A stretch of DNA of 59,832 nt, counting the filler. It is 5 parts of 5 records of this genome, joined end to end, with 100 filler letters (N's around TTAATTAATTAA, not from the genome) between each part and the next. Parts side by side here need not be neighbours in the genome. Positions count along the whole stretch, not along the records: positions 1 to 16,002 come from DRR723986_7368; 4 more parts are not named here. One strand, given 5' to 3'. This document shows, piece after piece, positions 1,338-52,398 of this stretch. The translations under genes and the position numbers were made by a program. The notes under the pieces are model-generated. The model made no database searches. It had not been told where the DNA came from and saw only the letters and a list, made by a program, of their open reading frames with translations. Position 1 is the first letter of the stretch, and each line of letters begins with the position of its first letter.

Positions 1338-1353
1338 TGGCACAAACGTTGCT
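1338..1353 (+). promoter_or_regulatory. Sigma-54 (-24/-12) promoter of the aco operon
   Basis: TGGCAC-AAACG-TTGCT, exact consensus and spacing, 28 bp before the acoX start. Confidence 0.88.
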
Positions 1354-1381: not shown

Positions 1382-2425
1382 GTGACCAAAGTTGGCATCA
1401 TCGCAAATCCTGTCTCTGCCCGCGACATTCGCCGGATCGTCAGCCATGCAGGCAATCTTCCGATCAACGACCGGGCCAATATCGTGCTTCGGATGATGAC
1501 AGGGCTTATGGCGACGGGCGTTGAAGAAGTGGTAATCATGCCCGAGAATGGTGGGATCCGCACGCAGCTGATGCGCGTCATCGACCGCGAAAACCGCATG
1601 GGTCACGTTCGGTTTCCCCGTGTCAGCTATCTGGACATGCCGGTCACCTGCACCTCGGAGGATAGCGCGGAAGCCGCCCGCCAGATGCACGATCAGGGTG
1701 TCGGAGCGATCGTTGTTCTGGGCGGAGATGGGACCAATCGGGTGGTTGTGTCCAAATGCGGCAATACGCCGATTGTGGGCGTGTCCACCGGCACCAACAA
1801 CGCTTTTCCAGAGTTGCGCGAACCCACGATCACCGGACTGGCGGTCGGTCTGGCGGTAACGGGACAAGTGCCCTGCGAGCACGCCTTTGCCTACAACAAG
1901 CGGCTGGAAGTCCGCGTGAACGATCAGCGCGAGATCGCACTTGTCGATGTGGCCGTCGTTTCCGAGCGCTTCATCGGTGCCCGCGCCATCTGGAAGACGG
2001 CGAACTTCCGCGACCTGTTTGTCACCTTCGGCCGGCCTGACGGTATCGGCATGTCCTCCATCGTAGGACTTCTTGCACCGCTTGATCGGCAGGCTCCCGA
2101 GGGGCGAAGGGTACGACTTCTACCGCTTGAGACCGCAAACTTGCGTCTGACCGCCCCCATTGCGCCGGGCCTGATCGAAGAGGTCGGCATCGGGGCTGTC
2201 GAGAAGGTTGTTCCCAACGAGGTCTATCTGCCGAGCGTTTCCGCCGGGTCCTTTGCACTCGATGGGGAACGGGAACTGACCTTCAGCGAAATCGACGATG
2301 TCAGCATCCGGCTTCAGGCCGATGCGTTCCGCACCGTCAACGTGCCCGATTGCATGGCCTATGCGGCCAGGCACGGGCTTCTCACCCGCGCCGCGTCAGA
2401 GGCGCTGCGCACCGCTCAATCATAA
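1382..2425 (+). CDS. acoX: Acetoin catabolism protein X (ATP-NAD kinase-like)
   Basis: VGIIANPVSARDIRR, LGGDGT and STGTNN motifs; first gene before acoABC; GTG start after GGGAGG. Confidence 0.88.
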   Translation: MTKVGIIANPVSARDIRRIVSHAGNLPINDRANIVLRMMTGLMATGVEEVVIMPENGGIRTQLMRVIDRENRMGHVRFPRVSYLDMPVTCTSEDSAEAARQMHDQGVGAIVVLGGDGTNRVVVSKCGNTPIVGVSTGTNNAFPELREPTITGLAVGLAVTGQVPCEHAFAYNKRLEVRVNDQREIALVDVAVVSERFIGARAIWKTANFRDLFVTFGRPDGIGMSSIVGLLAPLDRQAPEGRRVRLLPLETANLRLTAPIAPGLIEEVGIGAVEKVVPNEVYLPSVSAGSFALDGERELTFSEIDDVSIRLQADAFRTVNVPDCMAYAARHGLLTRAASEALRTAQS

Positions 2426-2436
2426 GGGAGGACCTC

Positions 2437-3417
2437 ATGAGCAACCCGTTCCCACTGGAAAAAGACGGGCTTCTGGAAGCCTATCGCCGGATGAAGACGA
2501 TCCGGGAATTCGAAGAGCGTCTGCATGTCGATTTCGGCCGCGGCGATATCCCCGGTTTCGTGCATCTTTATGCGGGTGAAGAGGCCGCGGGCGTCGGCAT
2601 CATGATGCATTTGCAGGATCATGACCGCATCGCCTCGACCCACCGGGGCCACGGCCATTGCATCGCAAAGGGCGTGGATGTGAAAGGAATGATGGCCGAG
2701 ATCTACGGCAAGGCCACCGGTTCCTGCGCGGGCAAGGGCGGGTCGATGCATATCGCCGACCTGTCCAAAGGCATGATGGGCGCCAACGGCATCCTCGGTG
2801 CAGGCGCGCCGCTGGTCTGCGGGGCCGCGCTGGCGGCGCAGAAGCTGGGCCATGACGGTGTGGGCATCACCTTCTTCGGCGACGGTGCCTCTAACCAGGG
2901 GACGGTTCTGGAATCGATGAACCTGGCCGCGATCTGGAACCTGCCGGCGATCTTCGTGGTGGAAAACAACGGCTACGCGGAATCGACCTCCGTTGACTAC
3001 GCCGTTGCGTCTGACAGCTATGTCGACCGTGCGACCGGTTTCGGCATGCCGGGCATCACCGTGGACGGCACCGATTTCTTCGCCGTCTACGAAGCGGCGG
3101 GCGAGGTCGTGAAGCGTGCGCGCGAAGGCGGCGGGCCGACCCTTCTGGAATGCAAGATGATCCGCTTCTTCGGCCATTTCGAAGGCGATGCCCAGACCTA
3201 CCGTGCTCCAGGTGAGAACGAGGACAATCGCAAGAACCGCGACTGTCTCAAGATCTTCCGTGCCAAGGTGACCGAAGCGGGCGTCCTGACCGATGCTGAA
3301 CTCGACGCCGTCGACGCCCAGGTCATGACCCTGATCGAGGACGCGGTGACCGAGGCCAAGGCCGCCCCGCTGCCTACCCCCACCGAACTTACCACCGATG
3401 TGTACGTGTCCTACTGA
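2437..3417 (+). CDS. acoA: Acetoin dehydrogenase E1 alpha (TPP-dependent)
   Basis: GFVHLYAGEEA, STHRGHGH, TPP motif GDGA...NN, GHFEGD; ATG after GGGAGG. Confidence 0.93.
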   Translation: MSNPFPLEKDGLLEAYRRMKTIREFEERLHVDFGRGDIPGFVHLYAGEEAAGVGIMMHLQDHDRIASTHRGHGHCIAKGVDVKGMMAEIYGKATGSCAGKGGSMHIADLSKGMMGANGILGAGAPLVCGAALAAQKLGHDGVGITFFGDGASNQGTVLESMNLAAIWNLPAIFVVENNGYAESTSVDYAVASDSYVDRATGFGMPGITVDGTDFFAVYEAAGEVVKRAREGGGPTLLECKMIRFFGHFEGDAQTYRAPGENEDNRKNRDCLKIFRAKVTEAGVLTDAELDAVDAQVMTLIEDAVTEAKAAPLPTPTELTTDVYVSY

Positions 3418-3446
3418 CACGCGCTGACAAGGAAAGGAGATAGAAA

Positions 3447-4454
3447 ATGGCACGTACATTGAGCATGAAAGACGCGATCAACGAGGCTCTGGATCAGGAA
3501 ATGAGCCGGGATCCGACCGTGATCATGATGGGCGAAGACATCGTCGGCGGAGCCGGATCGCCTGGTGAAGAGGACGCTTGGGGCGGTGTGCTCGGGGTGT
3601 CCAAAGGCCTCTATGCCAAGCATCCCAAGCAGATGATCGACACGCCATTGTCGGAAAGCGCCTATGTCGGCGCGGCCATCGGGGCCGCGACCTGCGGGCT
3701 TCGCCCGGTGGCGGAACTGATGTTCATCGACTTCATGGGCGTCTGCCTCGATCAGATCTACAACCAGGCGGCCAAGTTCCGCTACATGTTTGGCGGCAAG
3801 GCCGAAACACCGGTCGTGATCCGGGCGATGTGCGGCGCGGGTTTCCGTGCAGCGGCCCAGCACAGCCAGATGCTGACGCCCATCTTCACCCATATCCCGG
3901 GCCTGAAGGTGGTCTGTCCCTCGAACGCCTATGACACCAAGGGCCTTCTGATCCAGGCGATCCGCGACAACGATCCGGTGATCTTCCTCGAGCACAAGAA
4001 CCTCTACGCATCTGAATGCGATGTGCCTGAAGAGCCTTATGCCATCCCGTTCGGAGAAGCGAACATCGCCCGCGAGGGCAGCGATGTGACCATCGTAACA
4101 TACGGCCTGATGGTGCCCAATTCGCTGGCCGCCGCCGAGACGCTCAAGAAGGAAGGTATCGATGTCGAGGTGATCGACCTGCGTACCCTCAGCCCTATCG
4201 ACATGGATACCGTGATTGAAAGCGTCGAGAATACCGGCAGGCTGGTCTGCGTCGACGAGGCAAACCCGCGCTGTTCCATCGCCACCGATATCTCGGCCAA
4301 CGTGGCGCAGGATGCATTTGGGGCGCTGAAAGCGCCAATCGAGATGGTGACCGCGCCGCATGCACCGGTTCCGTTCTCACCTGCACTCGAAGATCTCTAC
4401 ATCCCGTCGGCCGACCGGATCGCCGCCGCCGTGCGCAAGACCATGGGGGCTTGA
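3447..4454 (+). CDS. acoB: Acetoin dehydrogenase E1 beta
   Basis: DAWGGVLGV, DTPLSES, AAAQHSQ, PVPFSPALE motifs. Confidence 0.93.
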   Translation: MARTLSMKDAINEALDQEMSRDPTVIMMGEDIVGGAGSPGEEDAWGGVLGVSKGLYAKHPKQMIDTPLSESAYVGAAIGAATCGLRPVAELMFIDFMGVCLDQIYNQAAKFRYMFGGKAETPVVIRAMCGAGFRAAAQHSQMLTPIFTHIPGLKVVCPSNAYDTKGLLIQAIRDNDPVIFLEHKNLYASECDVPEEPYAIPFGEANIAREGSDVTIVTYGLMVPNSLAAAETLKKEGIDVEVIDLRTLSPIDMDTVIESVENTGRLVCVDEANPRCSIATDISANVAQDAFGALKAPIEMVTAPHAPVPFSPALEDLYIPSADRIAAAVRKTMGA

Positions 4455-4460
4455 GGACCG

Positions 4461-5564
4461 ATGAGCGATCAAATCGTACCAATCCTGATGCCGAAATGGG
4501 GCCTCTCGATGAAACAGGGCACGCTTGCGGCCTGGCATGTAGAGGAAGGAACCGAAATCAAACCCGGCGACGAGATCATGGATGTCGAAACCGATAAGAT
4601 CGCAAACGTCGTGGAGGCCGCCGACGGTGGCCTTCTGCGCAGATGCGTCGGGACAGCCGGAGAGGTATACCCGGTTCAGGCTCTTTTGGGTGTCCTGGCG
4701 CCGGCGTCGGTCTCGGATTCCGAGATCGACGCCTACATCGGCGCGTTCGAGATGCCTGAGGTCGAGGAGGACGAAGAGCAAGCCCCGACGCACGAGATCG
4801 CCGAGCTTGCGGTGGGTCGCATCCGCTATGCGTCGCGTGACGGGGACGGCACGCCCGTGATCTTGATCCATGGCTTTGGAGGGGACAGCGACAACTGGCT
4901 CTTCAACATCGACGCGATCGCGACCGTTGCTCCCGTGTACGCGCTGGATCTGCCGGGCCATGGCGGGTCGGTCAAGACCACCGACGATCCGGACCTCGGT
5001 ACGATGGTCAGCGCTGTGGTGCAATTCATGGACCATCTGTATATCGACAAGGCGCATCTGGTTGGCCATTCCATGGGCGGCCTCGTTTCCGGACAGACGG
5101 CCCTAGATCACGGGGGGCGTGTGGCCTCGCTGACCCTGATCTGTTCTGCCGGTCTGGGGGAAGAGATCAATTCGGACTACATCGACGGCTTCGTGTCTGC
5201 AAGCAGCCGCAAAGACCTGAAACCCACTCTGAAGCATCTGTTCGCGGATCAAAGCCTGGTGAGCCGTGGAATGGTGGACGATCTGCTGAAATACAAGCGG
5301 TTGGACGGAGTGCAGGCGTTTCTCGGGCTCCTCAAGGACAACCTGTTTGCAGATGGCAGGCAGGCCGTGAACATCGCCTCTGGCCTCAGTGACTTGGATA
5401 TCCCCATTCAGGTTATCTGGGGCGAAGACGATGCAGTTATCCCGCAATCCCACGCCAATGTCATCACTGGTGCGACGACAACCGTCATCTCTGGTGCCGG
5501 TCACATGGTGCAGATGGAAAACGCGTCTCGGGTCAATGAGCTGATTCAGCAACTCCAGCAATAG
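4461..5564 (+). CDS. acoC: AcoC: lipoyl domain fused to alpha/beta-hydrolase-fold acetyltransferase
   Basis: MPKWGLSM...ETDKI lipoyl lysine; HGFGG, GHSMGG nucleophile elbow, GAGHM. Confidence 0.9.
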   Translation: MSDQIVPILMPKWGLSMKQGTLAAWHVEEGTEIKPGDEIMDVETDKIANVVEAADGGLLRRCVGTAGEVYPVQALLGVLAPASVSDSEIDAYIGAFEMPEVEEDEEQAPTHEIAELAVGRIRYASRDGDGTPVILIHGFGGDSDNWLFNIDAIATVAPVYALDLPGHGGSVKTTDDPDLGTMVSAVVQFMDHLYIDKAHLVGHSMGGLVSGQTALDHGGRVASLTLICSAGLGEEINSDYIDGFVSASSRKDLKPTLKHLFADQSLVSRGMVDDLLKYKRLDGVQAFLGLLKDNLFADGRQAVNIASGLSDLDIPIQVIWGEDDAVIPQSHANVITGATTTVISGAGHMVQMENASRVNELIQQLQQ

Positions 5565-5631
5565 CTCTGACCCGTGCCCAGCCCGCCCGGTCTTCTCCCC
5601 GCCGGGCGGGTCAACCCCTTGGAAAGATCAC

Positions 5632-5964
5632 ATGACGACACATACGGAAAAGCTGGCAGCGGCCAACAAGAGACTGATGGGCCTGTTCAAGGCAGATCAG
5701 AAAACAATGCTGGCCTTCAAAGGGCTCAGCGATACGGCGGTGCGGGAAGGCAATATCTCCTCTGCCATGAAGGAAATCATCGCGGTTGCCATCGCTGCAG
5801 CCCGAGGCTGCGAGGATTGCATCCTCTATCACGTTAACGAAGCGAAAACCCATGGCGCCGACCGGGACACGCTGGTCGAGGTGCTTGCCGTGACCATCGA
5901 AATGTCGGGCGGTCCCGGAACGGTCTACGCAGCAAAAGCACTCGACGCCTTTGATAACCTTTGA
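5632..5964 (+). CDS. Carboxymuconolactone decarboxylase/AhpD-like protein with CxxC
   Basis: KEIIAVAIAAARGCEDCILYH matches the AhpD core E...CxxC...H. Confidence 0.85.
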   Translation: MTTHTEKLAAANKRLMGLFKADQKTMLAFKGLSDTAVREGNISSAMKEIIAVAIAAARGCEDCILYHVNEAKTHGADRDTLVEVLAVTIEMSGGPGTVYAAKALDAFDNL

Positions 5965-5992
5965 AGACATCCAACAATTCAGAGAGGTTCCG

Positions 5993-6472
5993 ATGGAAAC
6001 TGGATATAGGATCCCATCTACGCCCGTGCAGCAACTTGTCGACGGTGAAATCCGACAAGTGGATCTGGCTTCGTTTTCGGCCGGGAAAACTATCGTGCTG
6101 GTCGCCGTGCCGGGGGCCTTTACCCCGACATGTTCCGATGATCATGTGCCTGGCTATATCAAGGGTGTGAAAGCTTTCCGGGATGCCGGCGTCGACGAGA
6201 TTGTCGTTCTGGCCACCAGCGATTTCTTCGTCGTAAAAGCCTGGGCCGACCAGTTGAACCCGCCGCAGCATCTGCACTTCATGGCCGATGGTAGCCAGAT
6301 CTTCACCAAGGAGGCCGATCAGATGCTGGACCTGACAGAGCTTGGTCTAGGGCTTCGGACGCAACGCTATGCTGCCGTCATTCGAGATGGCTTTGTGATA
6401 AGCTGTGCGATTGAGCCCGATGCCACCGCGGTGTCCGTTTCGGGGGCGGAGGCCATTTTGGCCAGCCTGTGA
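5993..6472 (+). CDS. Peroxiredoxin, Prx5 subfamily
   Basis: VPGAFTPTCS peroxidatic motif, ADG, LGLRTQRYA; ATG after GAGAGG. Confidence 0.88.
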   Translation: METGYRIPSTPVQQLVDGEIRQVDLASFSAGKTIVLVAVPGAFTPTCSDDHVPGYIKGVKAFRDAGVDEIVVLATSDFFVVKAWADQLNPPQHLHFMADGSQIFTKEADQMLDLTELGLGLRTQRYAAVIRDGFVISCAIEPDATAVSVSGAEAILASL

Positions 6473-6643
6473 CACTTGAGATACCAACTAGATACATGAA
6501 GTCGCGAGCAAGGTTTCGCGGCTTCTTGGCTTTCAGAACGATCAAAATGATTAGGATTCATAAGTGAAAATGGTTAAAAACATGACAATCTGAGAGAGAG
6601 CTGAAGCCCTCGGGATGTTCATCGCTTTGGGAGGAGCGGAGAA

Positions 6644-8374
6644 ATGGATCAAACGCGCGCGTTCGAACAACACGTTCGGGAAATCGTCAACGCATCGGAA
6701 GGCAAACAAACGTCGCGCGATGCCGTTGTCATTGAATCCTGGCTGCGCTGCCTGAACGAGCACAAACTTGACCCGGAGCACAAGGGGGAGGCGCGCATTC
6801 TTCCTGAGAACACGCTGCGCCATCATCAGCAAGAAGCCGAGGACCTGCTGTCAATTGCCCGGTTTGGAATGGAAGACCTCTACCGAAGGGTCAATTCCAT
6901 GGGATATGTCCTGCTTCTGACCGATGCAAAGGGAGTGACGGTTGATTTCATCGGAGATGAAAAAGTTGACCGGGAACTGAAGCGGGCTGGGCTGTATATT
7001 GGTTCAGAATGGTCAGAGGAAAACGCAGGCACCTGCGGGGTTGGGGCGTGTCTTACGTCGGGTGAAGCCCTGACAATCCACCAAGCTGATCACTTCGACA
7101 TGGCCCACACGCCACTCAGTTGCACGGCGGCACCTATTTACCATTCTGATGGCACTCTGATCGGCGTACTTGACGTATCCCTGTTGATGTCGCCAGCCGA
7201 AAAATATTCTCAGGCGCTGACGCTGGAAGTGGTCAAGTCTTGTGTGCGCCGTATCGAGTTGGCAAACTTGATGAATTCGCGCAAGTCCGATTGGATTCTC
7301 AGGTTGAACCGGACGTCGGAGTTCCTTGGCGTTGACCCGAATTGCGCGGTATCGGTCGGTGCAGACGGGACGATTTCCGGTTTGACACACGGGGCGCACC
7401 AGCTATTTGCGGACACGCTTGGGCAACACTGGAAGAGCGCACAAAGGTTTGTCGGCAAGCCGTTCGAAGATGTGTTTGATTTCGATTTCAACGACATTCC
7501 GTCCCTTCTGGGGGCAGATTCGCCCGGTGAACATGCGCTCGAGATGGCGGACGGACAGATCATGTTTGCCGATGTGCGCGCGCCGGTGCGGCCCGAGCCG
7601 AGGGCGTCGCGCCCGCTTCTGCCGGAAGCTCTTGCGCGTATTCATGGCGGTGATCGACGTATGCAAGAGTTGGCCGGGAAGGCCGCCCGCATCGTGGATA
7701 AGCAGATCAGCATCATTCTCCAAGGCGAGACCGGCGTTGGCAAGGAATTCGTTGCCAAAGCTTTGCATGAAGCACGCAAGAAAAAGGGGCCGTTTGTTGC
7801 GATCAACTGCGCTGCGCTGCCCGAGGCGCTGATCGAAAGTGAACTGTTCGGCTATGCGCCCAATTCCTTTACCGGGGCGAACACCAAAGGGAAGAAGGGT
7901 CTGATCGAGCAAGCCAATGGCGGCACGCTGTTCCTGGACGAAATAGGGGACATGCCGCTTGCTCTCCAGGCGCGACTGTTGCGGGTTCTGTCGGAAAAGG
8001 AGGTGATGGCCGTCGGTGCGAGCAAACCTGTTCCGGTTGACATCCGCGTCGTCTCAGCCTCTCACCGGAATCTTAAGGCTCTTGTTGATGCGGGACAGTT
8101 CCGACAGGACCTTTACTATCGCCTGAACGGCGTCGTTTTGCAGATTCCCGCGTTACGCGATCGTGAAGACAAGGCATGGATCATCCGGCAGATCGGCGGC
8201 GTGGTGTCGCCTGACGGGCCATTGAGGTTTGCGAAGGAAGCCGAGGAAGCGCTGGCGGCTTACCATTGGCCCGGCAACGTCCGTGAAATGATCAACGTCT
8301 TCGAGCTTTGCGTCGCGTTGTGCGATGGCGGAATGGTCGAAGTAACTGATTTGCCTGAATATATAAGCTCATAA
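6644..8374 (+). CDS. acoR: AcoR-type sigma-54 enhancer-binding protein (GAF + AAA+), no C-terminal HTH
   Basis: N-terminal GAF (SWLRC, WSEENAGT, CTAAPI); GETGVGKE, ESELFG, NSFTGA, FLDEIGDM, WPGNVRE; ends at DLPEYISS. Confidence 0.88.
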   Translation: MDQTRAFEQHVREIVNASEGKQTSRDAVVIESWLRCLNEHKLDPEHKGEARILPENTLRHHQQEAEDLLSIARFGMEDLYRRVNSMGYVLLLTDAKGVTVDFIGDEKVDRELKRAGLYIGSEWSEENAGTCGVGACLTSGEALTIHQADHFDMAHTPLSCTAAPIYHSDGTLIGVLDVSLLMSPAEKYSQALTLEVVKSCVRRIELANLMNSRKSDWILRLNRTSEFLGVDPNCAVSVGADGTISGLTHGAHQLFADTLGQHWKSAQRFVGKPFEDVFDFDFNDIPSLLGADSPGEHALEMADGQIMFADVRAPVRPEPRASRPLLPEALARIHGGDRRMQELAGKAARIVDKQISIILQGETGVGKEFVAKALHEARKKKGPFVAINCAALPEALIESELFGYAPNSFTGANTKGKKGLIEQANGGTLFLDEIGDMPLALQARLLRVLSEKEVMAVGASKPVPVDIRVVSASHRNLKALVDAGQFRQDLYYRLNGVVLQIPALRDREDKAWIIRQIGGVVSPDGPLRFAKEAEEALAAYHWPGNVREMINVFELCVALCDGGMVEVTDLPEYISS

Positions 8375-8418: not shown

Positions 8419-8434
8419 TGGCACATTCGTTGCT
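8419..8434 (+). promoter_or_regulatory. Sigma-54 promoter of the ABC transporter operon
   Basis: TGGCAC-ATTCG-TTGCT, 14/16 identical to the aco promoter. Confidence 0.85.
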
Positions 8435-8482
8435 TATCCTCCTTTGACTGCAATCGTGAAAGTCAAAAAAGGGAGGAAGACT

Positions 8483-10114
8483 ATGTCGTTCAGAACACCC
8501 AAACTGCTGCAGCCCTCGCGCCGCCAGTTCCTGAAGAGCTCTTCAGCGACGATGGCAGCAGCCGGGAGCATGGGGATGTTGGGAAATTTCCTGGCCGCAC
8601 CCGCCAGTGCGCAGCAATTCGCCGCCGGAATGACTGGCGGCCCAACCGGCTTTGATGGGGCCGAACGGTTCCAATACAATGGCTCCATGTCCGAAGGGCG
8701 TGCGATCGAGGGCATCCGGGCGCTGCGTGCAGCGGGGCGTGTTCCCGAGCGCCTGACCATGCTTCTGACGGACGGAGCCATCGGCCAGATCACCCGTCCT
8801 TTCCCGGATGGGGCGCCGTCCGTCAAGGAAGTCTGGGAACGCGAAACCGGCATCGAGATCGACATCGTGGGCTTCCCGGCGGAAGACATCTTCACCAAAG
8901 TCATGCAGGACGTGACAACCCAGGCCGGATCTTACGACATCTACACCGGTCCGTGGAACTCCACCGGAGATCTCGTGTCTTCCGGCGGTGCGCTCAACTG
9001 TTCCGACTTCGTGGCGCAGTACCAGCCCGACTGGGGCGATCCGGAGCGCGGCACGCCGACACCCGAGATGGAGCGGCTGCTCTACACCTATGCCGGTGAC
9101 TACTACTCGGTCTCGCTCGACGGTGACTTCCAGACCTGGTTCTACCTGCGCGGCATCTATGAAATGCCCGAGGTTCAGGACGCCTTCCTTACGGAAACCG
9201 GGCACGAACTGGCTGTCCCAAACACTTGGGAAGAGGTGGACAGGATTTCCGAATTCTTCACCGGCAAGGATTTCGGCCATGGCACCATGTACGGCAACGG
9301 CAACCTGATGAGCCCGTTCTGGGGTCTGGCGACTTTCTATGCGCGTTTTGCCTCGATGGACTTCCCGAACTTCCACTTCTTCGACGAAAACGCCAATCCG
9401 CAGTTGAACACCGAACTGGGCATTCAATGTGCGGAGGAGCATATCCGCTCCTTCGAATGGACCCCGCCGGATGCGCTGACCTACACTTGGGCCGAAGCCT
9501 ATGCCCAGATGTGGAACCTGCGTGTTCCGCACACTGCAATCTACACCAACCTCGTGAAGTTCGGCGACGGGTACAACGCTGACGGCACGCCACGCTCTGC
9601 GGCAACTGGCATGATCGACAGCCACCTGCCGGTTGGCCGCCGCTTTGGCGACCAGATCAACCGGCGGTCGGTGCTCTACTACCACATCACCGCCTGGGTT
9701 TCGTCGCAGACACAATACCCCGAAGCGGCTTACCTGTTTCTGCAGTGGCTGTCGTCTACCCGCACCTATACATGGATGGCGGGCAACCCGGGCGGCTATT
9801 TCGACCCGATGCAGCAGGCGAACTTCCGCGAACCACTGGTCGCATCGACCTACCAGCAATACTCCATGGAAACGATCCCGGCGACCATCGCGCGCTCGGT
9901 GCCGTCGATCAACTTTGCCGGGCAGACCGCACTCGACAACGCGCTGGACGATGAACTTCAGGCCGCAATCACAGGTCAGAAGACCCCGAGGGAGGCAATG
10001 GACGCCGCCCAGAGCCAATGGGAGCGGATTATCCGTCGCCAGCGCCGCAACGGGATCGAAGAGGCCATCCTTGCAAGCCGTGAAACCTGGCCGACCATCG
10101 TCGACGAAGCGTAA
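8483..10114 (+). CDS. CUT1-family ABC substrate-binding protein with Tat signal
   Basis: SRRQFLK twin-arginine motif, ASA cleavage site, family-1 SBP features (ETGIEI, P.TWEE, AYLFLQWL); RBS GGGAGG. Confidence 0.85.
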   Translation: MSFRTPKLLQPSRRQFLKSSSATMAAAGSMGMLGNFLAAPASAQQFAAGMTGGPTGFDGAERFQYNGSMSEGRAIEGIRALRAAGRVPERLTMLLTDGAIGQITRPFPDGAPSVKEVWERETGIEIDIVGFPAEDIFTKVMQDVTTQAGSYDIYTGPWNSTGDLVSSGGALNCSDFVAQYQPDWGDPERGTPTPEMERLLYTYAGDYYSVSLDGDFQTWFYLRGIYEMPEVQDAFLTETGHELAVPNTWEEVDRISEFFTGKDFGHGTMYGNGNLMSPFWGLATFYARFASMDFPNFHFFDENANPQLNTELGIQCAEEHIRSFEWTPPDALTYTWAEAYAQMWNLRVPHTAIYTNLVKFGDGYNADGTPRSAATGMIDSHLPVGRRFGDQINRRSVLYYHITAWVSSQTQYPEAAYLFLQWLSSTRTYTWMAGNPGGYFDPMQQANFREPLVASTYQQYSMETIPATIARSVPSINFAGQTALDNALDDELQAAITGQKTPREAMDAAQSQWERIIRRQRRNGIEEAILASRETWPTIVDEA

Positions 10115-10183
10115 CGCGACGCCCTCTCCAGACAAGAGGCTGGCCCGGGATGTGCCGGGCCAGTCTGACACGGCACGCAATCA

Positions 10184-11056
10184 GTGGGGTACTATCTCGT
10201 GAAAACGTCTCCCAGCGCGATGGCGCTCAAATACTTTTTCGTTCTTCTCGCATGCGCGGTCGTGCTCTATCCGCTTTTGTGGATGATCACGATGGCGTTC
10301 AAACCTCACCCGGAATGGACAACTGTCGCAGGCCTGACCTGGTTCCCCGAGAACCCGACGCTCCAGAATTTCGAGTTCATCTTCTTTGGCCGGGCCGAGG
10401 GATTGGTGGTCTCGCTTGATCGCACGATCGTCGGGCCGCTAATCGCAAGCCTAGTAACGTCGATCATGGGAACCCTTGTCGCCGTCGTCTGCGGAACACT
10501 GTCATCTTATGCGGTAGTGCGATTTGGGCTTGCGCAATCGCTGCCCCTATCGGTCTTGCAACTGCGCCTTTTCCCGCCGCTTGCCGTGATGATACCGGTC
10601 ATGGTGATGTGGTCGTTCCTTGGCGCCGTTGATACATGGTGGGGCCTGAGCCTGATCTACGGGATCGTAACGCTACCTTTCGCGTTCTGGCTGATGAAGA
10701 CCTTTTTTGAAGAGATCCCGGTTGAAATCGAGGACGCTGCACGCGTGGCGGGCTGTTCCTACTGGCGTGTGTTCTACCGGATCACCTTGCCCATCGTAAA
10801 GCCGGGGCTGGCTACCTGTGCGCTCTTCGTCTTCATCCTGAACTGGTCCGACTATCTGCTGGCGCTTCTTCTTACCCAGAGAGACTGGGTGACTCTGCCT
10901 GTGTACATGGCAACGCTGACCTCTGCCATGGGCGGGCAGATGTACGGAATGAAAGCTGCCCTCGGCGTTATCGCTGCCATTCCGCCCGTCATCTTCGGCC
11001 TGATGATTCAAAAGCACTTGGTGCGCGGCCTGACATTCGGAGCACTCAAGCAATGA
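10184..11056 (+). CDS. ABC permease (MalG-like)
   Basis: Multiple TM segments; FFEEIPVEIEDAARVAG EAA loop. Confidence 0.88.
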   Translation: MGYYLVKTSPSAMALKYFFVLLACAVVLYPLLWMITMAFKPHPEWTTVAGLTWFPENPTLQNFEFIFFGRAEGLVVSLDRTIVGPLIASLVTSIMGTLVAVVCGTLSSYAVVRFGLAQSLPLSVLQLRLFPPLAVMIPVMVMWSFLGAVDTWWGLSLIYGIVTLPFAFWLMKTFFEEIPVEIEDAARVAGCSYWRVFYRITLPIVKPGLATCALFVFILNWSDYLLALLLTQRDWVTLPVYMATLTSAMGGQMYGMKAALGVIAAIPPVIFGLMIQKHLVRGLTFGALKQ

Positions 11057-11985
11057 CCGACCAATCATCAACCGACATCACCTCACGCAAGACACGGTCA
11101 GGATACTGGAACAGTGTCGCACGCGATGGACAGAAGATGGGCTTCTGGTTCGTTCTGCCGACGCTTTTGCTGCTCGTGTTCATCGTCGTTTTCCCCCTGC
11201 TAATGCAGCTTTACCTCTCGTTCACCTGGTGGACGCCCTTGGAGGGTATTCCCTGGTACCAGGCGTGGGAGGTGTTCAACTGGGGCGAAAACTATTGGTA
11301 CATGGTGACCGATCCCCGGTTCTGGGGAGCGCTGTGGCGCACGGTTCTGATCATGATCGTTGCCGTCCCCGCGCAGTTCTTCCTAGGCATGGCTCTGGCT
11401 TATCTGTTCATCGACCAGTTTCCCGGTCGCAAGCTGTTCTACTCGATCATGCTGATGCCGATGATGATTGTGCCAGCCGTGGTCGGTCTGATGTTTTTCC
11501 TGCTCTTTCAGGGAACCGGGCCGATCAACGACCATCTTGGCCTGCCTGCGGAGTTTTCGTGGCTGACGGATGTGAACCGAGCTATGATCTCTGTCATCAT
11601 CGCCGATATCTGGCAATGGACGCCGCTGATGTTCCTGATCCTCTTGGCGGGCATGTTGGGTGTGCCATCTGATCAGCTTCTTGCAGCGCGGTTGCTTGGC
11701 GGGTCGAACTGGCAGAATTTCTTCAAGATCATCCTGCCGCGCATGAAGACGGTAATCGTTATCGCACTGGTTTTGCGGGCGGTTGAATGCTTCAAGATTT
11801 TCGATCTGGTGTTCATCATGACCAATGGCGGGCCGGGCGTTCAGACGGAAACAATTTCCGTCTTCCTCTACAACCAGACCTTCGGCGAACTGGAATGGGC
11901 CTATGTCGCGACCATGGGGCTTTCAATCCTCATCGCGCTTAGCGTCGTTGCGGCGAAAGGCCTGTCCTTGATGGCGAAGAAATAG
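11053..11985 (+). CDS. ABC permease (MalF-like)
   Basis: TM segments; ADIWQWTP, FKIFD, TNGGPG; degenerate EAA loop. Confidence 0.88.
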   Translation: MTDQSSTDITSRKTRSGYWNSVARDGQKMGFWFVLPTLLLLVFIVVFPLLMQLYLSFTWWTPLEGIPWYQAWEVFNWGENYWYMVTDPRFWGALWRTVLIMIVAVPAQFFLGMALAYLFIDQFPGRKLFYSIMLMPMMIVPAVVGLMFFLLFQGTGPINDHLGLPAEFSWLTDVNRAMISVIIADIWQWTPLMFLILLAGMLGVPSDQLLAARLLGGSNWQNFFKIILPRMKTVIVIALVLRAVECFKIFDLVFIMTNGGPGVQTETISVFLYNQTFGELEWAYVATMGLSILIALSVVAAKGLSLMAKK

Positions 11986-11994
11986 GGGGCCAAG

Positions 11995-13098
11995 ATGTCA
12001 TCCATTCAAATCCAGAACGTAACGAAACGCTTTGGCGATTTCACTGCTGTAGACAATATCTCGATCGACATCGAGGAAGGCGAGTTCGTCGCCCTCCTCG
12101 GTCCATCGGGCTGCGGCAAGACAACAACAATGAACATGATCGCGGGGCTGGAAGACGTCAGCGAAGGCGCCATCCGATTTGACGATCAGGACTTCAGCCA
12201 GGTCCGGATTCAGGATCGCAACATCGGCTTTGTGTTTCAGAACTATGCGATTTTCACCCATCTAAGTGTCTACAAGAACCTGTCCTACGGTCTGGAGGTC
12301 AAGAAGGTCGGCAAGACCGAGATTGACCGCCGGGTTCAGGCAATGGCCGACCGAATGAGCATCTCGCATCGGCTGTACCAACCGGCTTCCAGCCTCTCGG
12401 TTAACGAGATGCAGAAGCTTGCCATCGGCCGTTCGGCTATCGTCGAGCCTCGGATCTTCCTGCTGGACGAACCGCTGTCCAATCTAGACGCAGGCTTTCG
12501 GGCCTACATGCGGGCCGAGTTGAAGGTGCTGCAGCACGAATTCGGCCAAACCATGATCTACGTCACCCATGACCAGATCGAGGCGATGAGCCTGGCGGAC
12601 AAGATCGCCATCATCGATCAGGGCAAGCTGATGCAGTATGGCACGCCGCTGGAAATCTACAACAATCCGCAAAATCGGTTTGTCGCAAACTTTGTTGGAA
12701 GCCCGCGCATGAACCTTGTGGATGGTGAGTTGAGAGAGGAACGTGGGGAACTGCACCTGATGCTGCACGGAGGTGCGGAAATCCCTCTGGTGGGTAAGGT
12801 GCGCGCGGACTTCACTAGCGACGCCATGGTGCATAGTGGCTCCTTTGGGATCCGTCCTCAGGACATCTACTTCGGCGACAAGCGCGGCTCGGATGACATT
12901 GCGATGCACGGCAAGGTCGAGGTTTTGGAACGGGTCGGCCCCAAGCGGCTGGCCTATCTGCAGGTTCAGGAAACCATGTTCCTGGCCTTTGACGATCAAG
13001 CGCAGCTGACGGTAGGCGACGAAGTGCCATTTTACCTGCCTTCAAATGCAAGCATGGCCTTCGACTTCGAAACCGGTCGTCGGCTGGGAGGCAACTGA
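11995..13098 (+). CDS. ABC ATPase (MalK-like), degenerate signature
   Basis: GPSGCGKT, LLDEPLSNLD, YVTHDQ; LSVNE in place of LSGGQ. Confidence 0.9.
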   Translation: MSSIQIQNVTKRFGDFTAVDNISIDIEEGEFVALLGPSGCGKTTTMNMIAGLEDVSEGAIRFDDQDFSQVRIQDRNIGFVFQNYAIFTHLSVYKNLSYGLEVKKVGKTEIDRRVQAMADRMSISHRLYQPASSLSVNEMQKLAIGRSAIVEPRIFLLDEPLSNLDAGFRAYMRAELKVLQHEFGQTMIYVTHDQIEAMSLADKIAIIDQGKLMQYGTPLEIYNNPQNRFVANFVGSPRMNLVDGELREERGELHLMLHGGAEIPLVGKVRADFTSDAMVHSGSFGIRPQDIYFGDKRGSDDIAMHGKVEVLERVGPKRLAYLQVQETMFLAFDDQAQLTVGDEVPFYLPSNASMAFDFETGRRLGGN

Positions 13099-13101
13099 AT
13101 C

Positions 13102-14163
13102 ATGTCGGCGATTGAAATCACAAACGCGGTGAAGATCTATCCGGAATTCACGCTCGGCCCCATCAACATGACGGTGGAGCAGGGAGAATTCTTCGGCATC
13201 TTCGGCCCCCCCTCGACGGGCAAGACGTCGATCCTCAAACTTATTCTTGGCCTGCTGCAACCCGATGAGGGCCGTGTCGTTCTGTCTGGCCGTGACGGTG
13301 CGGATATGGACGTGGCTGAGCGTGACATCTCGATGGTGTTCCAGAACCTCGCTCTGTTCCCGCACATGACGGGGCGCGAGAACATCATCTTCCCGCTCAA
13401 GGAACGTGGCGCATCAGAGCGCGAGATTTCGGAGCGGCTGGATTTCGTTTCCGAGGTTCTGCATGTCAGCCATATCCTGCACAAGAACCCCGCGCAGATG
13501 TCCGGGGGCGAACGCCAGCGGATCGCCCTCGGCCGGGCCTTTGCGGCGGATAGCCGGGCCATGCTTCTGGACGAACCGATTGCCGCACTCGATGCACGCC
13601 TGCGTGAAGAGATGCGGGTGGAACTGAAACGGCTGCAGCGCGAAAACAACCAGACATTTGTCTATGTCAGCCATGACGAGGAAGAGGTTATGGCTGTCTC
13701 GGATCGGGTGGCCGTTATCGTCGATGGCAAGATCGCGCAGATTGGCACGCCGGACGAGGTATATAGCAGGCCTAATTCGCTTGCCGTCGCCAAGGTCATC
13801 GGCTCGCCGCCTATGAATCTCTTCCAAGGGTATTTCGATGAGCATGGCGCGCGCTTCAAGGCCGATATCCTGCCGGAAAGCGTTGCAATCGTCGGCTCGC
13901 CGAGAAAGGGCGGCGAAGGTACGCTCGGTATCAGGCCAGAAGACATCTGGCTTGGTGGGAGCGACGGAAACCCGAGTTTCGAGGTGATGGTTTCATCTGT
14001 CGAACCGCTCGGCAGCTATACCATCATTAACGCGTTGCTGGGCGCGCAGATCCTGAAGATCCGCGCGCCGGGTCAGTTGATCCTGAAAGAAGGCAGCTCT
14101 CAGCGCGTCAGCCTAGATTCGCGGCATCTCCACCTGTTCGATGAAACGGGCCAGAGGATCTAG
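13102..14163 (+). CDS. ABC ATPase (MalK-like), second subunit
   Basis: [27 protein letters not shown]. Confidence 0.9.
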
Positions 14164-14264
14164 CAATCGCTACAGGGTTCTGGGGTCGGATACCCATCTT
14201 CGAGACGGGTGCCGTTTGGCAGGTCGAAAAAAGCATATCGGGAAATTGGGAAGGCATCGAAAAA

Positions 14265-15218
14265 GTGTCCAGTAAAGACCTACGCATTCGCCATCCGGAG
14301 AAGGCAAAGGCTACCGTCGGGGTGAGCCTTCCCAAACCACCCTGGCTTCGGGTCAGGGCGCCTGATGGTGAGTTGTTCCATAAAACGAATGCAGAAATCA
14401 AAGACCAGCGCCTCGTAACCGTCTGCGAAGAAGCCGCGTGCCCGAATATCGGCGAATGCTGGTCAAAGTCTCATGCGACCTTCATGATCATGGGCGAGAT
14501 TTGCACGCGCGGCTGTGCGTTCTGCAATGTAGCCACGGGGCGGCCGGATGCTCTGGATGTATTCGAACCCGCGCGTGTGGCCGATGCTGTCGCCAAACTG
14601 GGATTGCACCATGTTGTCATAACGTCTGTAGACCGTGATGATCTGGAGGACGGCGGTGCCCAGCATTTCGCCCGGACCTTGCTGGCAATCCGCCGCAAGT
14701 CACCTCAGACCACCACCGAAGTTCTGACACCGGACTTTCGAATGTCGAGTGCGGGCGCCCTTGGAACAGTTTTGTCGGCGCGTCCTGATGTGTTCAACCA
14801 CAACATCGAAACGGTCCCGAGACTTTATCAGAAGGTTCGCCCCGGCGCGCGGTACTTCGGGTCACTCTACCTCTTGAAACGCGCCAAGGAGATGAGCCCT
14901 GACGTGGCCACAAAATCCGGGCTGATGGTTGGCATGGGTGAAAGCACCGAAGAAATTCTTCAGGTGCTCGACGACCTGCGCGCGGCGGATGTGGATTTCG
15001 TCACTATCGGACAATATTTGCAGCCGACTCTGCGACACTATCCGGTCAATCGCTATGTTCCGCCAGAAGAGTTCGAAAGGTTAGAAAAACAGGCACGCTC
15101 CAAGGGGTTCGCTATGGTTTCAGCCAGTCCGTTGACGCGATCCAGCTATCATGCGGAGGAAGATTTCGCACAACTCAAACGCGTGCGAAGTCAACAAACG
15201 ACCGACAGCGCCGTTTAG
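14265..15218 (+). CDS. lipA: Lipoyl synthase
   Basis: [20 protein letters not shown] radical-SAM motif, RSSYHA. Confidence 0.95.
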
Positions 15219-15311: not shown

Positions 15312-16002
15312 GGTCTTGTCAGATTAACTTGGCTTGAGCCGAGCCGGGGGCTTTCGTAGCCTTTCCGGATGACCAAGCGCTCCCCCTTCAAGTGCTTCAA
15401 ATCCAGCTCCGAAATCATCCGCCTGGTGGTCATGCTGTACGTCCGATTTTCGCTCTCGCTGCGCAATGTCGAGGATCTCCTTCACGAACGTGGTGTAGAT
15501 GTAAGCCACGAGACAGTCCGCTATTGGTGGCACAAGTTCGGGCCGGTGTTCGCATCCGAGATCCGAAAACGCCGGATCGAAGGCATGAAGTCCAGTCGCT
15601 GGCGGTGGTACCTCAACGAGATCTTCGTAAAGATCAACGGCGAGCGGCACTACCTGTGGCGGGCCGTGGATCACGAAGGCGCGGTACTCGAGAATTTCGT
15701 GACGAAGACCCGAGATAAAAGGGCAGCGGTGAAATTTCTTAGGAAAGCAATGCGCGAGCACGGTCCCCCCGAGGTAATCGTCACGGACCATCTGCACTCG
15801 TACGGCGCTGCTCTTAAAGAGATCGGTGCTGCCGAAAGGCAGGAGATCGATCGCTGGTTGCACAATCGAGCGGAGAATTCACACTTGCCGTTTCGACGAC
15901 GAGAGAGGGCGATGCAACGTTTTCGCCGAATGCGAAGTTTGAAGGAATGCGCCGCTGCCCACGTCTCCGTTTTTGTCCGTCGTCACATAAAATGGGACAT
16001 CA
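15312..16002 (+). mobile_element. IS6-family element remnant (transposase from 15369, degenerate, reaches contig end)
   Basis: SLRNVEDLLHERG, YLWRAVD, NRAENSH; putative left IR GGTCTTGTCAGATTAA; first DDE Asp reads Asn (WYLNE). Confidence 0.85.
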
Positions 16003-16102
16003 NNNNNNNNNNNNNNNNNNNNNNNNNNNNNNNNNNNNNNNNNNNNTTAATTAATTAANNNNNNNNNNNNNNNNNNNNNNNNNNNNNNNNNNNNNNNNNN
16101 NN
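16003..16102. other. Artificial contig linker
   Basis: N-run with central TTAATTAATTAA six-frame stop. Confidence 0.99.
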
Positions 16103-16191: not shown

Positions 16192-17340
16192 TCAACTTAC
16201 CAAAATCCTTGCCAGATATTGCTGGAAGTACCAAACTGTACGCTCCTTTGGTGAAAGCCGACCTGGCGCTGCTGCCAAGGCCCCAGCGTTTTTGACGATA
16301 CTGCCAATGATCGGTTTATCCTCATCATTGATCGCGTCAAATCCGGCCTTCAATTCCGCCGCATAGGCTGCGCGCTCAGTTGGGTCTTCGGGAACGGCAC
16401 CGGGATAGTAATCTACCCCCCAGAGCACTTTGACCTGATTGGTGCCGTACGGTTGCAACGAGAGCCAGAAGGTGCGCTCTGCCACCACAGACATCACATG
16501 GCAGGGGAAAACCGCCGACAGAACCGCAGTATTACGCTCCTCTTCTGTCAGCAGGGGGTTGTCTACCTGCATGTCAGAGGCGCGTTCATAAGACTTCCCC
16601 GGGATCCGCCCCTGTTTGTATAGGCTGTGACCGTCACTGCCATGCATCGCATTAGCCAGCTTGGTCGGCATGGCTGGTTCAATGGTTTTGGCGTGCGCCA
16701 CAAACAGGTGATACCCCTCGGTAAAGTTCTGCACTAGGATCTTCCAGTTGGTGTCCCAGATTTCTTCTGCCCGGAACAGGGTACGGTACTTGTCCAGTTG
16801 GTAATTTTCTAGATGTTCCGACAGCAACGTGAGGCGCGGAGCCAGCGGTTTTGCCTCGGGATCCAGTGAAACATAGACCCAGCCCTGCCAGACCTCGATC
16901 TGGAATTGCGGCAGGCAGACTTCTTTTTTGTCGAAGTTATCGCGCATATGGGCGGCGCCAATCAACTGGCCGTCAAGGTTATAGGTCCAGGCGTGATAGG
17001 GGCAGGTGATGCGGCCTTTGATGTTGCCTGATCCTTCCAGCAGGTTTGCCATCCGGTGGCGACAGATATTGGACATGGCCCGCAGATTGTCGTCGCGGTC
17101 GCGCAAAACCACCACCGGATCACGCCCGATGGTCATGGTGCGGTAATCCCCCTGATTTTCGAACTCATCAATCCGGCCCACACAGAACCATTCGCGATTG
17201 AAAATCTCGTCCAGTTCCAATTCCAGAAACTCTGGCGAGGTATAAACCTGTGGCGGCGTTGCTTCTGCGAGGTCATCAGGCAGCTCAGCGTTGCGCTGCA
17301 GCGCCTGCAACAACTCCTCAAGTGGCATATGCGGTTTCAT
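16192..17340 (-). CDS. Rieske non-heme iron oxygenase alpha subunit (GbcA/Stc2/choline monooxygenase-like)
   Basis: CRHR...CPYH Rieske motif; NWK...EGYHLFVAH and DED iron ligands. Confidence 0.88.
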   Translation of the reverse strand: MKPHMPLEELLQALQRNAELPDDLAEATPPQVYTSPEFLELELDEIFNREWFCVGRIDEFENQGDYRTMTIGRDPVVVLRDRDDNLRAMSNICRHRMANLLEGSGNIKGRITCPYHAWTYNLDGQLIGAAHMRDNFDKKEVCLPQFQIEVWQGWVYVSLDPEAKPLAPRLTLLSEHLENYQLDKYRTLFRAEEIWDTNWKILVQNFTEGYHLFVAHAKTIEPAMPTKLANAMHGSDGHSLYKQGRIPGKSYERASDMQVDNPLLTEEERNTAVLSAVFPCHVMSVVAERTFWLSLQPYGTNQVKVLWGVDYYPGAVPEDPTERAAYAAELKAGFDAINDEDKPIIGSIVKNAGALAAAPGRLSPKERTVWYFQQYLARILVS

Positions 17341-17376
17341 TCTTTTCCTCCCAGTCGAATGGCTTGCTTGGGGTGG

Positions 17377-17952
17377 CTAGGTTTCGGCCAGCCCATATTG
17401 TTGCGCGCTGTCTGAAAGCAGCTCCCACAGGGACCGGGCCGAGCTGCGTGGTATCAGAAGGTTGAAATGGTCCTCATCGCGCCAAAGCGTGACGCCCACG
17501 TGATGAAACGCCGTGCTGGCCACAGCCCCAACAGAAAACGCCGAAGAGTGCAGGTTCAGCGGCAGAAAATGATTGAGCAGCGTTTCAGCCCGCGCGCCGC
17601 CAACCCGCAGCCAGCAACGGGCATCCTGCATATCCAGAACCGCGCCCAGATCAGGTGCCAAATTTGGTGTAACATGGGCCGCTCCCGGTGGGCTGAGCAT
17701 CCACCATTTCAAAGGCTCAACCCGCAACAGAACAGTTTCTGCGCCAAATCTGCTCTGCCCTGGAATGGGCGCTGTTGCGCACCCCGCCGCAGATGCAGCT
17801 GCTGCGCCGGTTTGTGCCAGCGTTGCGCCCCAGGCGGCAAACTGCACCAGACCAAAGCCCGAGATCTCGGACAAGGTAACACCCGCAGGACCCGCCACAC
17901 CAAAATGGCCCGTTTTGCGTATGCCGTACAGGGGGGACATTGAATTAGCCAT
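17377..17952 (-). CDS. soxG: Sarcosine oxidase-like gamma subunit
   Basis: Overlaps soxA stop; SoxG-like size and RSSARSLW motif. Confidence 0.75.
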   Translation of the reverse strand: MANSMSPLYGIRKTGHFGVAGPAGVTLSEISGFGLVQFAAWGATLAQTGAAAASAAGCATAPIPGQSRFGAETVLLRVEPLKWWMLSPPGAAHVTPNLAPDLGAVLDMQDARCWLRVGGARAETLLNHFLPLNLHSSAFSVGAVASTAFHHVGVTLWRDEDHFNLLIPRSSARSLWELLSDSAQQYGLAET

Positions 17953-20917: not shown

Positions 20918-21198
20918 GGTGTTACCTCTAGCGCGCTGGCCATGTCTGGATGGGCGGGGCGCACCGAGTGGATCTCATGGGTCATCGTATCGCGCTCTAC
21001 TAGGATCCACATGCGGCACCCATTTACATGCTGCCAGGTCTCGATCTGCACACCACAGATGTTTTCACGCTGAAACACAGCGTCGTGCCAGTCCTGCATC
21101 GGGGCATCAAGACTTGGGTATTTGATCGAACCATCGCCGCCATAGGCGAATTCGCTGTGATCCCGGGTGCCGCAAAACGGACAGGGTATTCTGATCAT
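20914..21198 (-). CDS. soxD: Sarcosine oxidase-like delta subunit
   Basis: CPFCG.R..SEF, WQH..GC..W Zn motif. Confidence 0.92.
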   Translation of the reverse strand: MIRIPCPFCGTRDHSEFAYGGDGSIKYPSLDAPMQDWHDAVFQRENICGVQIETWQHVNGCRMWILVERDTMTHEIHSVRPAHPDMASALEVTP

Positions 21199-21209
21199 TT
21201 CATATGTCC

Positions 21210-47257: not shown

Positions 47258-47399
47258 GTGATTACCTTTTCTTACCGCCAGCCAGTGAACAACCTATTGA
47301 TAGCAAAGGAAGGCGGGACGGGCAAGGTAGGTCAGTGGAAGGGCCGAATGCGCGAGTCGCGGACCAGGCCTTTCAATGTGTTCGAATAATGGTCCTGGT

Positions 47400-47413: not shown

Positions 47414-47431
47414 CGACGGTTACAGAACACG

Positions 47432-50216: not shown

Positions 50217-50249
50217 TTGGCGGTCTGAGTGCCTGACCAGGCTCTACAT

Positions 50250-50307: not shown

Positions 50308-52398
<2,091 letters not shown>

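Follow-up and report, generated by a model that had tools for sequence, protein, structure and literature searches.

The window, by which we mean the whole stretch of DNA analyzed here (59,832 nucleotides in five joined parts, filler included), carries an acetoin dehydrogenase operon, acoXABC, followed by a gene for a small AhpD-like protein of the carboxymuconolactone decarboxylase (CMD) superfamily and by a gene for a Prx5-type peroxiredoxin (Prx). Judged by its sequence, the region is best explained as an acetoin-cleaving operon controlled by AcoR and sigma-54, with a two-gene accessory redox branch. We give roughly even chances to a side branch that would run from acetoin through AcoAB and lipoyl-AcoC to CMD, then to Prx and finally to peroxide. 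This reading is favored because gene neighborhood ties CMD to a lipoyl protein and Prx to CMD, and because there is a mycobacterial precedent.

The genes of the unit all lie on the plus strand, in the order sigma-54 site, acoX, acoA, acoB, acoC, CMD, Prx, terminator-like hairpin and acoR. The features up to the hairpin are the following:

1338 to 1352, plus strand: sigma-54 (-24/-12) promoter-like site TGGCACAAACGTTGC (TGGCAC-N5-TTGC), 30 nt 5' of the acoX start codon.
1382 to 2425, plus strand: acoX, NAD-kinase-like protein (PF01513, 6.4e-13), with a GTG start after AAGGGAGG.
2437 to 3417, plus strand: acoA, E1 alpha subunit dependent on thiamine pyrophosphate (TPP) (PF00676, E1_dh, 7e-103), with an ATG at 2437 after AAGGGAGGA.
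3447 to 4454, plus strand: acoB, E1 beta subunit (Transket_pyr, PF02779, and Transketolase_C, PF02780; NF006667 346.5 bits, cut-off 321).
4461 to 5564, plus strand: acoC, hydrolase-type E2 (acetoin-E2 equivalog NF011457, 463.9 bits, cut-off 307).
5581 to 5611, plus strand: intercistronic stem-loop between acoC and the CMD gene, 11 G+C-rich pairs, no U-tract.
5632 to 5964, plus strand: CMD gene, single-domain AhpD-like protein of 110 residues (PF02627, 64.5 bits; E48, C60, C63, H67).
5993 to 6472, plus strand: Prx gene, Prx5-type protein of 159 residues (Redoxin, PF08534, 88 bits; C47 in PGAFTPTC).
6498 to 6525, plus strand: terminator-like hairpin of 11 pairs, then TTGGCTTTC, just past the Prx stop (-22.1 kcal/mol, z = -2.05).

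A preliminary description of this stretch had placed CMD and Prx co-directionally behind acoXABC, with gaps of 67 bp (acoC to CMD) and 28 bp (CMD to Prx), and both the gene calls and the gaps read from the sequence bear this out; the motifs it had named, E...CEDC...H in CMD and PGAFTPTC in Prx, are both present. From acoX to Prx, no intergenic gap is larger than the 67 bp. The sigma-54 pattern has four matches in the window against 0.22 expected, a number reached by none of 100 shuffles, and the hairpin at 6498-6525, the strongest terminator-like hairpin of the region, likely forms the 3' end of the acoX-to-Prx unit. No convincing promoter for CMD and Prx themselves was found between acoC and Prx: one weak sigma-70-like match (9/12) lies at 5951-5978, and the whole region has two such matches with 2.4 expected. 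In relatives the CMD gene either begins 8-40 bp from the preceding gene or overlaps it. Because a promoter precedes acoX, a terminator-like site follows Prx, and overlaps or short gaps recur in relatives, the inclusion of CMD and Prx in the aco transcription unit is supported. The stem-loop at 5581-5611 is unremarkable by energy alone (z = -1.37); 7 of its 11 pairs are retained through two-sided changes among 14 related sequences, and it is missing in two loci, L017 and L021, where the acoC-CMD gap is short. It may be an intercistronic RNA element that gives acoXABC and CMD-Prx different levels, acting perhaps through mRNA stability, attenuation or processing.

AcoC is composed of a lipoyl domain (residues 8-69), a short acidic linker and an alpha/beta hydrolase domain (132-355). 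We take K46 in ETDKI to be its lipoyl-lysine, and GHSMGG is presumably the motif of the alpha/beta hydrolase. A domain search did not detect the E3-binding domain PF02817 in the AcoC of the window, whereas it was detected in the E2-like proteins of the second group of loci described below.

CMD, with its 110 residues, spans only the C-terminal core of AhpD. It passes the superfamily profile PF02627 (cut-off 23) and the AhpD-core profile TIGR00778 (46 bits, cut-off 27.8), and it falls short of the full-length AhpD profile TIGR00777 (about 177 residues; 23.5 bits, cut-off 191.95). The motif in CMD reads E48-x11-C60-E-D-C63-x3-H67; the pattern E-x11-CxxC-x3-H is retained in all 81 CMD sequences (80 relatives and the window), and E48, C60, C63 and H67 are invariant in the 39 sequences that were aligned. 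The closest solved relatives are lpg0406 of Legionella pneumophila (5dik, 2.7e-15) and RclX of Pseudomonas aeruginosa (7y4r, 1.8e-12), and Mycobacterium tuberculosis AhpD is matched with an E value of 1.2e-4, residues 35-97 of CMD aligning with 105-167 of the chain. By this alignment offset, E48, C60, C63 and H67 map to AhpD chain positions 118, 130, 133 and 137, which we take to be the catalytic Glu, the two Cys and the His. An AlphaFold model built on the 39-sequence alignment has a pLDDT of 91.4 and six helices, with a TM score of 0.80 to 5dik and 0.71 to 7y4r. Against orthologues dN/dS is 0.04-0.09, with dS near saturation, and the gene is evidently under purifying selection. We conclude that CMD carries, at the level of sequence, the AhpD catalytic signature.

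With CMD, lpg0406 and RclX share a length of about 110 residues, a six-helix fold and the CxxC motif, at about 30-33% identity. What sets CMD apart from both is that its gene stands behind that of a lipoyl protein within a catabolic operon, accompanied in one clade by a peroxiredoxin gene of its own. According to PMC7950407, rclX differs in being a stand-alone stress gene under a redox-sensing regulator, and it is required for tolerance of HOCl and HOSCN, its mutants being sensitive to both.

The hydrolase half of AcoC resembles 3-oxoadipate enol-lactonase (NF051488 1.7e-25; TIGR02427 2.6e-21), and fusions of PcaD with PcaC exist as NCBIfam families. CMD might thus be imagined as a non-redox enzyme, a decarboxylase or isomerase that partners the PcaD-like domain of AcoC as a relic or variant of the pcaD-pcaC pairing. 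We hold this to be highly improbable: the PcaC profile TIGR02425 gives CMD 21 bits for a cut-off of 155.7, against 46 bits for the AhpD core, the Cys pair, Glu and His do not vary in any of the 81 sequences, and the nearest solved relatives are AhpD-like proteins with CxxC.

The evidence that links CMD to the lipoyl arm comes from its neighborhood. One genome per species was scanned for CMD, and the best 80 of 109 relatives were kept as loci. In 68 of these the CMD gene lies at most 400 bp downstream of a gene that encodes a lipoyl domain together with an alpha/beta hydrolase; nine loci lack this arrangement and three are cut by contig ends. The preliminary description had regarded the AhpD and Prx pair as the real signal. 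That view needs correction: the adjacency of CMD to a hydrolase-type E2 is, on these comparisons, the deeper and wider signal. Chance adjacency was considered as a candidate explanation and rejected on the counts for CMD with E2 (68/80) and for Prx with CMD (12/17).

Seventeen loci form a first group, in which CMD is 75-93% identical to that of the window and the layout is acoXABC, CMD, sometimes Prx, acoR and a transporter. They come from Nioella, Albidovulum, Ruegeria, Maritimibacter, Thalassovita, Actibacterium, Pseudoprimorskyibacter, Planktotalea and several metagenome-assembled genomes. A second group, with CMD at 45-57% identity, includes Cypionkella, Brucella/Ochrobactrum, Sinorhizobium, Azospirillum, Paracoccus, Nitratireductor and others. 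Here the order is a sugar ATP-binding cassette (ABC) transporter, E1 alpha, E1 beta, an E2-like gene, CMD, an FGGY kinase and two short-chain dehydrogenases/reductases (SDRs). The E2-like protein combines a single or double lipoyl domain with an E3-binding domain and an alpha/beta hydrolase. Identity between the two groups is no higher than 41-46% for the E1 subunits and 23-32% for the E2 proteins. In Tritonibacter mobilis the group-2 CMD gene overlaps the E2-like gene by 8 bp.

A third arrangement is found on plasmid 1 of Paracoccus denitrificans PD1222, with a divergent rpoN, then acoX, acoA, acoB, acoC, an SDR gene, CMD, a gene annotated as 2,3-butanediol dehydrogenase, and acoR. Its CMD is 65.7% identical to that of the window and its gene overlaps the SDR gene by 4 bp; the annotated 2,3-butanediol dehydrogenase points, indirectly, to acetoin as the substrate. 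Among the exceptions, L058 has a transketolase gene between the E2-like gene and CMD. In L054 CMD follows an FGGY kinase and a HAD hydrolase beside an IS110 transposase, and L042 and L053 resemble it in their layout of open reading frames and by tblastn. The E1 genes of L052 and L065 are about 7.5 kb off, the neighborhood of L070 is unrelated, and L049 and L061 are short or without an upstream E2 gene. Taken together, these loci indicate that CMD is tied to the lipoyl-carrying protein and not to a particular substrate, and that Prx is tied to CMD.

Two further observations concern the loci themselves. The group-2 operon is widespread in alphaproteobacteria (L023-L085, for example L025 2909-13367; also L146) and has the appearance of a lipoate-dependent pathway that cleaves a C-C bond of a sugar or polyol; no description of it was found in the literature. 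A metagenome-assembled genome labelled Cellvibrionaceae (L019) and one labelled Planktotalea (L020) have the same coordinates and identities for every gene of the locus, and likely represent one organism binned twice or a binning error.

We also approached the question from the side of AcoC, in a sample of 401 genomes from the family that includes Nioella sediminis; 43 of them gave 50 matches to NF011457 at E <= 1e-60. All 50 loci were read, and 49 were scored because one was cut at the acoC end. CMD lies directly downstream in six of them (L090, L091, L094, L121, L130 and L138), two of the six genomes being already present in the CMD survey. Nine operons of the group-2 type were met in the same survey, three with CMD and six in which the E2-like gene leads straight to the kinase. 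In a class-wide sample, 5 of 400 genomes had a protein over the AcoC cut-off. CMD is thus, from the sequences compared, an accessory gene that is gained and lost, yet always at the same place beside a lipoyl protein.

The closest solved relatives of Prx are of the Prx5 type: 1tp9 (1.7e-29), 3uma and 5k2i (E values from 1e-28 to 1e-29). Alignment of 16 sequences showed C47 and R122 to be invariant and T44 to be present in at least 90%. A second cysteine, C138, occurs in only 3 of the 16, and there is no other. This clade is therefore 1-Cys by sequence, no resolving Cys being conserved, and an outside thiol partner is needed for the cycle to be completed. Prx does not reach the AhpC profile TIGR03137 (22 bits, cut-off 272). 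Its dN/dS is 0.08-0.14 against orthologues, again with dS near saturation, and it too appears to be under purifying selection. Relatives with at least 55% identity were found solely directly 3' of CMD in group-1 aco operons, at 12 of the 17 genome loci and at two of five metagenome loci; at the other three metagenome loci from the Prx scan the match is 36-43% identical and tblastn found no aco, CMD or other query gene. The remaining Prx5-like genes of five carrier genomes are at most 38% identical to the Prx of the window.

Where group-1 loci lack Prx, the slot after CMD is empty in L012, L017 and L021. In L018 it holds a single-domain rhodanese (10445-10828; PF00581 7.5e-18) and in L013 a ThiD-like kinase (10599-11420), judged from its N-terminal sequence. 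The Nioella copies of Prx (L006 and L007, 10362-10838) read VGAFTPPC, not PGAFTPTC, so that the first proline of PxxxTxxC is lost; they are 70% identical to the Prx of the window, and the flanking aco genes 86-99%.

From gene content, motifs, operon signals and the conserved neighborhood we infer the following electron-transfer steps, direction of flow and kind of peroxide. AcoAB would cleave acetoin and reductively acetylate the lipoyl-lysine of AcoC. Once the acetyl group is gone, the dihydrolipoyl arm would mostly be reoxidized by a housekeeping lipoamide dehydrogenase (Lpd) encoded elsewhere, and the C60-x-x-C63 pair of CMD would draw off part of the reducing power of the arm, with E48 and H67 as a proton relay. 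CMD would then hand the electrons to the 1-Cys Prx5, whose C47 would reduce hydroperoxides. The outcome would be a peroxidase whose reducing power comes from the catabolic substrate and which is induced alongside it. In the many relatives that have CMD and no Prx, CMD might act alone or feed other acceptors. The peroxide could come from the environment, or the enzyme itself could generate it as a side product of its carbanion and dithiol chemistry.

A precedent for the proposed chemistry is the peroxidase/peroxynitrite reductase relay of Mycobacterium tuberculosis, which can run from E1 without Lpd and NADH: according to PMC8811941, LpdC, DlaT, AhpD and AhpC form an NADH-dependent peroxidase, which HoaS or AceE can fuel in place of LpdC and NADH. 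The two systems would have in common a lipoylated E2 as donor (as proposed here), a CxxC adaptor of the CMD/AhpD superfamily, a peroxiredoxin gene beside that of the adaptor and, going by what is described for mycobacteria in that source, drive by the E1 substrate. They differ in their E2, which in mycobacteria is the acyltransferase core of pyruvate dehydrogenase and here a hydrolase-type AcoC belonging to a catabolic operon; in that the adaptor is a single-domain protein below the TIGR00777 cut-off and the peroxidase a 1-Cys Prx5 below that of TIGR03137; and in that all the parts lie in one sigma-54/AcoR unit, which would be induced with the fuel. The E2, CMD and Prx genes are adjacent in the window and in 14 related loci, and none of the three proteins is of the same subfamily as its mycobacterial counterpart. 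In operation the system would resemble the mycobacterial relay, without belonging to those families.

Other lipoyl-linked peroxidases exist. Ohr/OsmC thiol peroxidases are reduced by lipoylated proteins and not by thioredoxin or glutathione, as stated in the review PMC8945050; their fold is unrelated to that of the proteins described here, and no Ohr/OsmC gene was seen in the annotated parts of the cluster. In the literature searched, mostly open-access, the only link of aco genes to AhpD or to a peroxiredoxin was a brief remark that a CMD gene neighbors aco genes on the Sphingobium plasmid pSM1, with no functional reading in the available text (PMC9676059).

Several points weigh against a lipoyl-fed branch. 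Because the 80 loci are related to one another, the counts do not stand for independent events. Of the 49 scored AcoC-type loci, 43 lack CMD, among them the six group-2-type operons mentioned above and a close aco relative (L092), so that the enzyme cycle can do without it; Prx does not occur in 5 of the 17 group-1 operons or in any of the more distant CMD operons. The conserved stem-loop at 5581-5611 could be a partial terminator that reduces read-through into CMD and Prx. A search of longer proteins for fusions of this CMD subfamily with E2 or Prx gave no match at E <= 1e-5, though this negative is weak as evidence. Moreover, Prx falls into the Prx5 group, whose characterized members, the solved bacterial and plant relatives of Prx among them, are generally reduced by glutaredoxin/glutathione or by thioredoxin, and no pairing of an AhpD with a Prx5 was found in the mostly open-access literature searched.

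This affiliation of Prx, together with the accessory nature of the module (CMD in 6 of 49 AcoC-type loci), would suit a peroxide-defense pair in which CMD and Prx are reduced by general thiol systems, thioredoxin or glutaredoxin/glutathione, and the AcoC arm is not the donor. The pair would then lie in the operon because acetoin oxidation, through TPP-carbanion and dithiol chemistry, raises peroxide or peracid stress; that small AhpD-like proteins can protect on their own, as RclX does (PMC7950407), is in keeping with this. We nevertheless consider it rather unlikely. It leaves unexplained why, in 68 of 80 loci and across operons that differ in substrate, CMD immediately follows a lipoyl gene, and why no thioredoxin or glutaredoxin gene stands alongside the pair in the annotated loci.

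Dihydrolipoamide dehydrogenase (E3) was searched for by tblastn with the lipoamide dehydrogenase of the nearest genome, G001, and gave no match at E <= 1e-3 in the window or in the 80 related loci (up to 20 kb each). The earlier statement that the contig has no E3 is thereby upheld and extends to the relatives. In each of the five carrier genomes checked, all with the full operon, two genes pass the TIGR01350 cut-off; they are placed on a different contig or 90 kb or more from the operon. In G001 one Lpd passes the family cut-off. Because Lpd genes lie elsewhere and the window is a patchwork, the absence of E3 from the window says little about the cell. Of the acetoin-fuelled relay from the lipoyl arm through CMD to Prx, as the preliminary description had drawn it, the relay itself agrees with layout, motifs, neighborhood and precedent; its further role in recycling the arm loses its necessity, since an Lpd encoded elsewhere can do this.

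The lack of an E3 gene, within about 10 kb in the 80 loci as in the window, and of a detected E3-binding domain in the AcoC of the window would also be expected if CMD and Prx were the main, NAD-independent route of AcoC reoxidation in cells without a dedicated E3. Such a replacement of E3 seems very unlikely to us, given the two Lpd genes in five of five carrier genomes and the one in G001. Moreover, most AcoC-type operons have no CMD and most CMD-bearing ones no Prx, and the route would need one peroxide per acetoin, which is implausible as a flux that supports growth.

Downstream of the hairpin, the cluster continues as follows:

6644 to 8374, plus strand: acoR, activator with GAF and sigma-54 AAA+ domains (PF00158, 7e-64), its position kept in related loci.
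8419 to 14163, plus strand: second sigma-54 site (8419-8433), then an ABC transporter, which follows acoR in related loci too.
14265 to 15218, plus strand: lipA, lipoyl synthase (Radical_SAM and LIAS_N), the last gene before an IS6-family transposase.

The transporter comprises a solute-binding protein with a twin-arginine (TAT) signal (8483-10114, 540 residues), two permeases and two MalK-like ATPases, and the stretch from transporter to lipA (8419-15218) probably belongs to the AcoR regulon. With the acoXABC operons of Cupriavidus necator and Pseudomonas putida, the operon of the window shares gene order, type of AcoC, a sigma-54 promoter, AcoR and an E3 supplied from elsewhere. It differs from the classical form in having acoR downstream, followed by an AcoR-type promoter, the ABC transporter and lipA; classical aco operons are not known to carry a CMD or peroxiredoxin gene.

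The presence of lipA in the cluster, noted in the preliminary description, is confirmed, at 7.8 kb beyond Prx and after acoR and the transporter; this linkage recurs in no more than 2 of the 11 related loci long enough to show it. The gene is relevant to another possible role of CMD, namely care of the AcoC arm, with Prx as merely one outlet. CMD might close the dithiolane after LipA has acted, or might reoxidize the dithiol as a protection against thio-adducts with aldehydes. In agreement with this, CMD follows the E2-like gene with or without Prx, both operon types seem to share only an E1/E2 chemistry whose released product is an aldehyde and not CO2, the window and those two loci have lipA linked, and the AcoC of the window has no detected E3-binding domain. 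Yet the group-2 E2-like proteins do have this domain and still carry CMD, the lipA linkage is rare, and oxidized CMD still needs an acceptor, so that arm care merges with the peroxide-reducing branch. As a separate explanation we find it improbable.

Beyond the window, the proposed branch can be put in a more general form, which we advance tentatively and at somewhat less than even chances: the distinct 110-residue AhpD-like subfamily would be an overlooked fourth component of AcoC-like lipoyl systems in Alphaproteobacteria, a dedicated oxidoreductase that unloads the arm without E3 or NAD, and one marine clade would have added its own 1-Cys Prx5, so that acetoin oxidation drives the removal of peroxide or peracid. 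If true, the principle of a peroxidase fed by a lipoyl arm would extend to a catabolic, substrate-induced system in which other protein families take all three positions, and lipoyl-dependent antioxidant relays would be a general accessory of catabolic, C-C-cleaving E1/E2 systems and not a mycobacterial speciality. A conserved protein that annotations of aco and sugar-type operons list as 'carboxymuconolactone decarboxylase family protein' would also gain a function. The four-protein system is simple enough to ask how a lipoyl arm loses electrons without E3, and CMD is carried by tractable organisms, among them Paracoccus denitrificans, Phaeobacter inhibens, Tritonibacter mobilis, Sinorhizobium and Azospirillum. 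Near-identical DNA was found in metagenome runs from marine algae, plastic surfaces and seawater, habitats in which exposure to peroxide is plausible. None of the runs listed was clearly RNA; two are labelled 'RNA?' and may be DNA, and short contigs from them span the acoC-CMD gap while one crosses the terminator-like site, which carries no information on transcripts.

The window is of mixed composition. Its right end (46784-59832) is 100% identical to G001, and the part from 1 to about 46.7 kb was not found in that genome except for short matches at 64-84% identity. The aco genes were not found in G001 either, and AcoC was found in none of 263 genomes of its family (E <= 1e-50). The first 15.3 kb are Nioella-like, the aco part having 86-99% protein identity to Nioella sediminis (99% for AcoX), with the exception of Prx (70%). 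Between 40 and 46.7 kb the G+C content is 68-72%, with 65-70% identity to Nioella housekeeping DNA. This composition points either to a large mosaic island that includes an IS6 element or to a chimeric contig.

Some genes outside the aco cluster deserve mention. A DDE transposase of the IS6/IS240 family (15369-16058) directly follows lipA and forms the right edge of the Nioella-like aco block, and the segment from 40 to 46.7 kb carries the alphaproteobacterial housekeeping genes tldD/pmbA and dapB and a DUF1674 gene. On the minus strand, 16192-22481 encodes a Rieske oxygenase alpha subunit, sarcosine-oxidase-like alpha and gamma subunits and a DAO-family oxidase, which looks like a methylated-amine demethylation cluster beside the insertion sequence.

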